DNA from: Nitrospinales bacterium
GTDB taxonomy: Bacteria > Nitrospinota > Nitrospinia > Nitrospinales > VA-1
Direction: 5' to 3'
Length of the DNA stretch: 64,000 nt
Assembly (NCBI GenBank): GCA_965262115.1
Contig: OZ253496.1
Coordinates: forward strand, 1,408,001-1,472,000
How positions within the stretch are numbered: the stretch's first letter is position 1; every line of letters begins with the position of its first letter. The notes under the pieces were generated by a model. It ran no database searches, was not told where the DNA came from, and saw only the letters and a program-made list of their open reading frames with translations. This document shows, in pieces, positions 10,040-10,225 of the stretch. Made by a program: the position numbers and the translations under genes.

Positions 10040-10225
10040 CCTGTGAGCCCTGTGGGAAGCCGGTTTTGTGTTTTCCACAAGGCTCACAGGGTTTGATTCA
10101 GGGCACAATAGATCGTTTACCCCTTGGGCTTTTAAGCCCGTCCCGAAGCGCAGATCGTTGTGTCCTGTTTTGATTAACCCGAACAGTTGCCTGGGCCACT
10201 GAGCCCGCATCGGCAAGGCTGGGAG
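10040..10225 (+). ncRNA. Putative IS110 bridge RNA (5' stem, target-binding loop, donor-binding loop)
   Basis: LTG TTTACCCCT (10116-10124), hairpin GGGCT-TTTA-AGCCC, RTG GTCCCGAAG (10140-10148); LDG ACAGTTGCC (10183-10191), RDG CAAG (10214-10217). Boundaries approximate. Confidence 0.8.

Follow-up and report, generated by a model that had tools for sequence, protein, structure and literature searches.

A left-end RNA of an IS110-family element predicted to guide insertion into a short hairpin repeat of a Nitrospina-type bacterium

We are confident that the left end (LE) of an IS110-family element from a Nitrospina-type bacterium encodes a bridge RNA, which is predicted from sequence to guide the recombinase into a 40-nt hairpin repeat, here called the micro-element, at the CT where stem and loop meet. 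We read the RNA as a guide because of the element ends, a two-loop fold, the match of the guides LTG and RTG to the flanks, a matched change of guide and target, conservation in 33 relatives and a split promoter. The element lies in a stretch of 64,000 nt (the window, G000:C1:1408001-1472000) of a genome that consists of a single 2.68-Mb contig (G000, completeness 93.86%). IS621 of E. coli inserts in REP sequences under the guidance of a bridge RNA (Durrant et al. 2024, PMC11208160; for IS621 and its bridge RNA see also Hiraizumi et al. 2024, PMC11208158). The element and its targets are located in the window as follows:

10003..11191, + strand: IS110-family element, 1189 bp including one CT core, non-autonomous 10-bp-deletion subtype; ends set by 23 full genomic copies; Pfam PF01548 and PF02371
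10003, + strand: start of LE, TGTATG, read from the window sequence
10234..11174, + strand: recombinase gene, its frame interrupted by a 10-bp deletion directly behind 10946; 264 aa are read in frame 1, the C-terminal 66 aa in another frame
11183..11191, + strand: left donor plus core ACAGTTG-CT (end of RE), from the window sequence and genomic copies
9994..10002, + strand: left target plus core AGTACCC-CT, which forms the left hairpin arm of the micro-element and in this case lies inside an IS3-like element
11192..11198, + strand: right target TCGGGGC, right hairpin arm; RTG matches the first 5 nt
54463..55651, - strand: another IS110 copy with the same 10-bp deletion, located within a complete IS3-like element (about 54089-56567)

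The whole genome holds 23 full-length copies of the element. Fifteen have an intact 316-aa ORF and measure 1199-1200 bp each, six share an identical 10-bp deletion, and two are members of a subfamily (88% identity) that has a premature stop. Both window copies are of the deletion type. The 15 intact and six deletion copies are referred to as the main family (21 copies); the two diverged copies are counted apart.

Comparison with contigs showed that the window copy lacks 10 letters behind position 10946 that other copies have, so that its frame breaks just after an ...RDSGKF motif. The domains of the window ORF are nevertheless recognized as PF01548 (DEDD_Tnp_IS110, 1.1e-24) and PF02371 (Transposase_20, 4.6e-09). 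The intact protein scores 226.8 bits against NCBIfam NF033542 ('IS110 family RNA-guided transposase', cut-off 140) and aligns with the solved recombinases of ISCro4 (E 2.4e-33) and IS621 (E 1.5e-30). Pfam, NF033542 and the alignment with the ISCro4 and IS621 chains identify a DEDD (RuvC-like) domain at the N-terminus and a Tnp domain with the conserved Ser at the C-terminus. These comparisons support the identity of the gene as that of an IS110-family recombinase. Lacking a recombinase frame, the window copy would either rely on the 15 intact copies or be carried along by the IS3-like element around it. An earlier note on this DNA had proposed to repair the frameshift before any recombination test; with 15 intact copies in the genome, such a repair is unnecessary.

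The predicted bridge RNA occupies the non-coding LE upstream of the recombinase gene and has the following parts:

10039..10088, + strand: 5' stem-loop, from the fold
10099..10167, + strand: target-binding loop with basal stem (10099-10108 / 10158-10167), inner AGATCG stem, guides and distal hairpin (10126-10139), from the fold and the alignment of 33 relatives
10099-10108 / 10158-10167, + strand: basal stem halves CAGGGCACAA / TTGTGTCCTG, with compensatory changes in 33 relatives
10116..10124, + strand: LTG TTTACCCCT, in the sense of left target and core; its positions 3-9 agree with the flank of the window copy
10126-10139, + strand: GGGC/GCCC distal hairpin, from the window sequence and the fold
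10140-10148, + strand: GTCCCGAAG, which contains RTG, from the window sequence
10142..10148, + strand: RTG CCCGAAG, reverse complement of CT+TCGGG; AG is the conserved core-pairing dinucleotide
10178..10223, + strand: donor-binding loop with closing CCC/GGG, LDG ACAGTTGCC (10183-10191), distal hairpin and RDG CAAG (10214-10217)

In its MFE fold (z = -3.77), the 231-nt LE (10003-10233) has a hairpin at the 5' end and two stems with interruptions; none of 200 shuffled sequences folded as well. In an alignment of 33 LEs the scaffold and the donor loop are almost invariant, and two hypervariable stretches fall exactly on LTG and RTG. RNAalifold predicts 27 consensus pairs for these LEs, 15 of them with compensatory changes, which are mostly located in the basal stem of the target loop. 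The donor loop fits the element's own ends, whose junction reads ACAGTTG-CT-TGTAT in the window: LDG ACAGTTGCC agrees with ACAGTTGCT at 8/9 positions and CAAG pairs with CTTG at 4/4. In the relatives the donor loop is nearly invariant, and so are their element ends. The earlier note had placed an IS110 bridge RNA of the IS621 two-loop layout, with a CT core, in this left end. All its motifs are present where it had put them, and the fold, the 33-LE alignment and the orientation of the guides agree with the layout given in the accessible text of Durrant et al. (PMC11208160). Its match counts for the two guides, 7/9 and 8/9, are likewise correct.

The effective guide match of the window copy is complete, with 7/7 positions for the left target (LT) and 7/7 for the core plus right target (RT). 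Copies at unrelated targets, which the earlier note had named as evidence against its reading, were looked for throughout the genome. TCGGG follows the core directly in 21/21 main-family copies, and TACCCCT precedes LE in 17/21. Two of the four left exceptions have an extra C and one an extra T at the junction; the fourth copy is nested in the LE of another copy. Apart from these four left departures, the result favours the earlier reading; the two diverged copies sit in CT+GCGGGGC. A full 9/9 match of LTG to the left flank occurs in 4/21 main copies, and the window copy is not among them. The target AGTACCC-CT-TCGGGGC reconstructed earlier consists of sequences that are indeed present; as a whole, however, it is a chimera in the window copy, being IS3-like on the left and part of a micro-element array on the right.

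Because the same flanks recur in 21/21 (right) and 17/21 (left) copies, the match is far beyond chance. The 21 main copies have 14 distinct 30-nt left flanks, which argues for many insertion events and against one duplicated block. Main-family copies are not all independent events, since IS3::IS110 composites recur at several loci and mostly hold the deletion subtype. The flanks of the 21 copies and 28 empty sites both read TACCC-CT-TCGGG; insertion is scarless, with one CT per side and no other duplication. Fragments of the IS110 likewise abut hairpin halves.

The micro-element itself is a unit of ~40 nt with the pattern [G/T]TACCC(C/G/T)-T-N-C-(G/C/A)GGGCATGAAG...ATCACA. A regular expression finds 254 hairpins in G000, so that the proposed target of the RNA is indeed an abundant repeat; a loose hairpin pattern gives 346 matches versus about 82 expected by length. 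Within the window, a 14-mer with up to 2 mismatches occurs 10 times versus 0.41 expected. The stem has compensatory variants (CCCC/GGGG, CCCG/CGGG and CCCT/AGGG), and the units also form tandem arrays with a period of 39. The micro-element is thus a short dispersed palindrome with compensatory stem variants, as are REP/REPIN sequences. Free sites that fit both working guides number 28 in G000. The free loop variants are about equally common (A 42, C 30, G 39, T 28), and all main copies are located in the T variant. Directly 5' of full hairpins the 9-mer TACCCCTTC, which comprises the left arm plus loop, occurs one to three times, e.g. at G000:C1:2384040-2384090.

A natural change of the guide was found within the same genome. 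The 21 main copies do not differ in their guide segments. The two diverged copies have two base differences in the target loop, one of which affects the RTG base facing the first base after the core (A to C, GAAG -> GCAG). Both copies sit in the hairpin variant TACCC-CT-GCGGGGC instead of ...-TCGGGGC. Since their right flanks are identical over more than 80 nt and their left flanks differ, the pair may represent one or two events.

For the relatives, 80 encoding loci were fetched and 33 LEs aligned. The nearest relatives come from Nitrospina-type MAGs (73% and 65% identity), others from Dehalococcoidia, Nitrospira, cyanobacteria and Burkholderia. The guides of each element, taken at alignment columns, were compared with its own flanks and with the flanks of the other elements. 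RTG matches its own right flank at 5/5 positions in 19/25 elements (mean 4.64), whereas cross pairs have a mean of 1.45 and reach 5/5 in 1%. Positions 2-7 of LTG match the own flank at 5/6 or better in 18/29 elements, compared with 3% of cross pairs. Position 1 of LTG agrees with the flank in just 4/29 relatives, and the 8th position of RTG is mostly unmatched. Consequently, the mismatches behind the 7/9 and 8/9 counts lie outside the working guides. Relatives with unrelated, non-hairpin targets follow the identical guide rule. We also considered a pairing of the base just after LTG (T; G in the diverged subfamily) with the first RT base; it was rejected, as inspection by eye gave no consistent rule in the relatives.

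Other genomes of the family give a mixed picture. In G015 and G032 there is an LE with RTG ...GGAG, which fits loop base C. This is the only assembled LE in G032, where five contig ends at the RE flank read T, T, T, G and C. G021 has T five times and C once at the RE flanks, with no LE assembled. Flank data of this kind cannot be paired with their own RNA, because the repeats are collapsed in the assemblies. The single relic copy in G035 has an RTG that expects CCAGG next to a TCGGG flank, a difference in two of five bases. On the sequences compared, the correspondence of one guide base to one loop variant is firm only within G000 and mixed in the other genomes.

A split promoter is predicted at the ends of the element:

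11171..11176, + strand: TTGACA, -35 half of the predicted junction promoter, in RE
10005..10010, + strand: TATGTT, -10 half of the predicted junction promoter, in LE

At the sequence level, the spacing TTGACA-17-TATGTT arises only with RE and LE joined over one CT, and the integrated LE contains no promoter-like site on the + strand. An equivalent split arrangement is found in 23/26 relatives, and a promoter at the RE-LE junction has been described for IS110 elements (Durrant et al. 2024, PMC11208160). Contigs of four sequencing runs were compared with window positions 9500-11700: no RE-LE junction is among the matches listed, where contigs break at repeat borders, and the loose contig end at 10003 corresponds to uninterrupted IS3 copies only. 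By analogy with IS621 (Durrant et al. 2024), the IS110 would be excised as a circle, and the joining of TTGACA to TATGTT at the RE-LE junction would allow transcription of a roughly 190-nt RNA plus the recombinase. LTG would then base-pair with TACCC-CT on its bottom strand, RTG with CT-TCGGG on its top strand, and the donor loop with the junction ACAGTTG-CT-TG. Finally, the DEDD/Ser recombinase would exchange strands at CT without duplication.

In the window, the element is embedded in another mobile element and a repeat array:

9087..10002, - strand: 3' part (916 bp) of an IS3-like element with orfB and rve domain, interrupted by the IS110 in the hairpin that follows its A AAA AAG slippery site
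11192..11284, + strand: micro-element array right of the IS110; a half hairpin, then two ATACCCGTGCCGGGCATGAA... units

The IS3-like element has a length of 1290 bp and is present in 17 copies (uninterrupted at G000:C1:695240-696529). It carries one hairpin unit just after the slippery site. Ten of the 17 copies are cut by the IS110, four are free with an intact hairpin and three are free with TCGTGGC in its place (G000:C1:412410, 604846 and 1657487). The G-to-T exchange in the right arm of these three breaks the stem and one RTG pair, and all three are uncut. This hints at a possible escape variant, the comparison being one of 3 versus 14 related copies and hence of small numbers. The orfB frame of the IS3-like element is +1 relative to orfA and not the usual -1; removal of 41 nt would restore -1. 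Left of the window copy lies IS3-like sequence. Its right flank is the micro-element array and not the continuation of that IS3: within 11192-11712, a stretch of 363 bp with micro-element units and other sequence stands in place of 217 bp of the IS3-like element, whose last 158 bp follow at 11555-11712. Flank shuffling among copies has therefore taken place. Composites that contain both halves of the IS3 occur at no fewer than three loci for the deletion subtype and no fewer than two for the intact one; the IS3 subtypes match. Probably, part of the IS110 copy number results from riding in the IS3-like element.

These composites raise the question whether the uniform flanks reflect the copying of a few composite units, either by IS110 riding in the IS3-like element or by segmental duplication and flank shuffling, with the guide match as a relic of one or two events. 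The IS3-like left flank in 9/21 main copies fits such copying, as do the recurrent two-sided composites and the shuffled left and right flanks. The other 12 main copies, however, have non-IS3 left flanks that all differ from one another, and every copy is cut at the identical CT. Moreover, 28 unoccupied sites show the undisturbed target, and the guide rule holds independently in relatives from other phyla. We therefore regard copying as an improbable explanation of the flanks. Less probable still is a recombinase that recognizes the DNA hairpin by protein or structure, like HUH or RAYT-type enzymes, so that the similarity of LE and target would have no guiding role. Certainly the target is a hairpin that is cut at the stem-loop junction, and for the IS110 element ISPpu10 a stem-loop at the target adds specificity according to the accessible text (bioRxiv 10.64898/2026.03.19.712850). 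Against an enzyme of this kind, loop A, C and G hairpins and those with the CCCG/CGGG stem occur as often as the T variant, yet have zero main-family copies. The sole differing loop base is the base paired by RTG, and relatives whose targets are unrelated and not hairpins obey the guide rule as well.

A further alternative reverses the roles: the IS110 recombinase and its RNA would be the missing engine that spreads the 40-nt micro-element, and the repeat would be a by-product of the IS rather than its prey. No Y1/RAYT transposase was detected in G000 (0 matches to PF01797 at 93.86% completeness; control genomes do match), which leaves room for such an engine, and the half-hairpin repeats of TACCCCTTC adjoin some IS110 sites. 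The repeat is older and more widespread than the IS, which makes the IS110 an unlikely engine: the hairpin pattern occurs in 37/70 genomes of the family, and DNA of the IS110 element in 8/70 by DNA similarity search, by which distant IS110s would be missed. The hairpin-rich genomes G034 (84 hairpins, no IS match) and G035 (311 hairpins, one relic) are nearly free of the IS. We consider this the least probable of the alternatives, with next to no weight, and retain RNA guidance into a pre-existing hairpin repeat as the preferred reading.

In several respects the system resembles IS621. The recombinases are homologous (DEDD plus Ser, E 1.5e-30). In both cases LE encodes an RNA, predicted in the present element, that combines a 5' hairpin with one loop for the target and one for the donor. 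LTG corresponds to the top strand and RTG to the antisense strand, and a CT core takes part in both pairings, as specified for IS621 (Durrant et al., PMC11208160). A junction promoter, seen here at the sequence level, and a dispersed palindromic repeat as natural target are further common features. Protein identity to IS621, estimated by eye from the alignment, amounts to ~30-35%. RTG comprises 7 nt in the present subfamily, whereas wild-type IS621 uses 4 according to the published text, and LTG position 1 is unused in the present element. The core lies here at the stem-loop junction of a mini-hairpin of 4-5 bp, with LT and RT as its two arms; in IS621 it is described within one arm of the long REP stem. 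A Nitrospina-type bacterium as host is another difference. ISPpu10 of Pseudomonas putida, also a bridge-RNA-guided IS110, occupies many copies of one REP sequence (bioRxiv 10.64898/2026.03.19.712850). It shares with the present element a target with a conserved stem-loop of ~5 bp and a recombinase acting in trans, as predicted for the present one. According to the available description, the stem-loop of ISPpu10 arises from a 5' extension that has the complement of LT, and it serves as an additional gate, whereas the present hairpin is formed by LT with RT and contains the predicted exchange point.

A fixed target within another mobile element is a feature that the present IS110, which enters the IS3-like element by way of its embedded hairpin, shares with the IS110/IS1111-type elements IS4321/IS5075. 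The latter belong to the IS1111 group, a different subgroup with the RNA at the other end. Their target is a transposon end and not a micro-repeat: Partridge and Hall reportedly described in 2003 that these elements insert in the terminal repeats of Tn21-family transposons.

RNA-guided targeting of a micro-element, as claimed earlier, is thus supported, but its novelty was overstated. REP-type repeats as IS110 targets and bridge-RNA guidance to them are already known from the published work on IS621 and ISPpu10. The differences lie in the host, the 7-nt RTG of the subfamily and the exchange point inside a mini-hairpin whose arms are the half-targets. A literature search for Nitrospina and IS110 found no relevant publication. 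The present element or a close relative may be among the many orthologues in the supplements of Durrant et al.

Our results add a compact predicted bridge recombinase (316 aa) with a 7-nt RTG from a lineage of marine nitrite oxidisers. They leave the knowledge of how bridge RNAs work unchanged. The natural target set in one genome (21 occupied sites, 28 free perfect sites and about 110 one-base variants) offers a ready natural read-out of how far mismatches are tolerated at the base adjoining the core. In addition, IS110 insertion explains many broken IS3-like copies in G000, and a second mobile element uses the hairpin repeat as its landing pad. It is conceivable, although we would sooner doubt than assume it, that a three-tier arms race is under way. 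Sister IS110 lineages would divide the loop variants among themselves by one-base RTG changes (GAAG/T, GCAG/G, GGAG/C), IS3-like copies are knocked out (10/17), and the three G-to-T copies are uncut. If true, the arms race would be a natural specificity experiment for bridge recombinases.

Additional arrangements of the element were observed in G000. At G000:C1:2144619-2145981, a full copy comes directly after a 164-bp LE fragment (left flank CAGTACCCCT); the two meet at a CT in the target-loop stem of the first copy. This looks like an off-target insertion into another copy and subsequent recombination between both. At G000:C1:2519312-2519436, LE fragments 1-88 and 1-56 form an inverted pair, head to head, each adjoining GAGTACCCCT; the pair is a rearrangement scar at the 5' stem-loop.

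Among the relatives, the 65%-identical element from Nitrospinaceae (L030 / L114, G014; contig ends L125 and L129 in G007) has guides for TCCCC-CT-AACCC. It adjoins a different hairpin repeat (CCCCCTTTAAAAAGGGGG), which suggests a second repeat family as landing pad. Relatives from Burkholderia/Paraburkholderia have matches to the Rfam sRNA candidate Bp1_684 on both sides (L096:921-1027 and 2307-2403; L102:343-452 and 2307-2402), with 38-45.7 bits at a gathering score of 44. Bp1_684 is probably the repeat into which these elements insert.

No Rfam family reaches the gathering threshold in the window. The model of RF02234 (sX15) aligns end to end (1-159) over the target-binding and donor-binding loops, at 10087-10243 on the minus strand. 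It scores 33.7 bits in the window, 41.1 at L030:1049-1203 and 38.2 at L047:1052-1197, with a gathering score of 55. Membership in sX15 was rejected, given 33.7 versus 55 bits and a match on the strand opposite the recombinase gene. The match is likely the antisense of a homologous bridge RNA. The accessible text of Schmidtke et al. 2011 (PMC3300014) describes sX15 as a Xanthomonas plasmid sRNA complementary to asX7, with 10 copies in Stenotrophomonas. Since such a copy number is expected of part of an IS, sX15 and asX7 may be the two strands of an IS110 left end.
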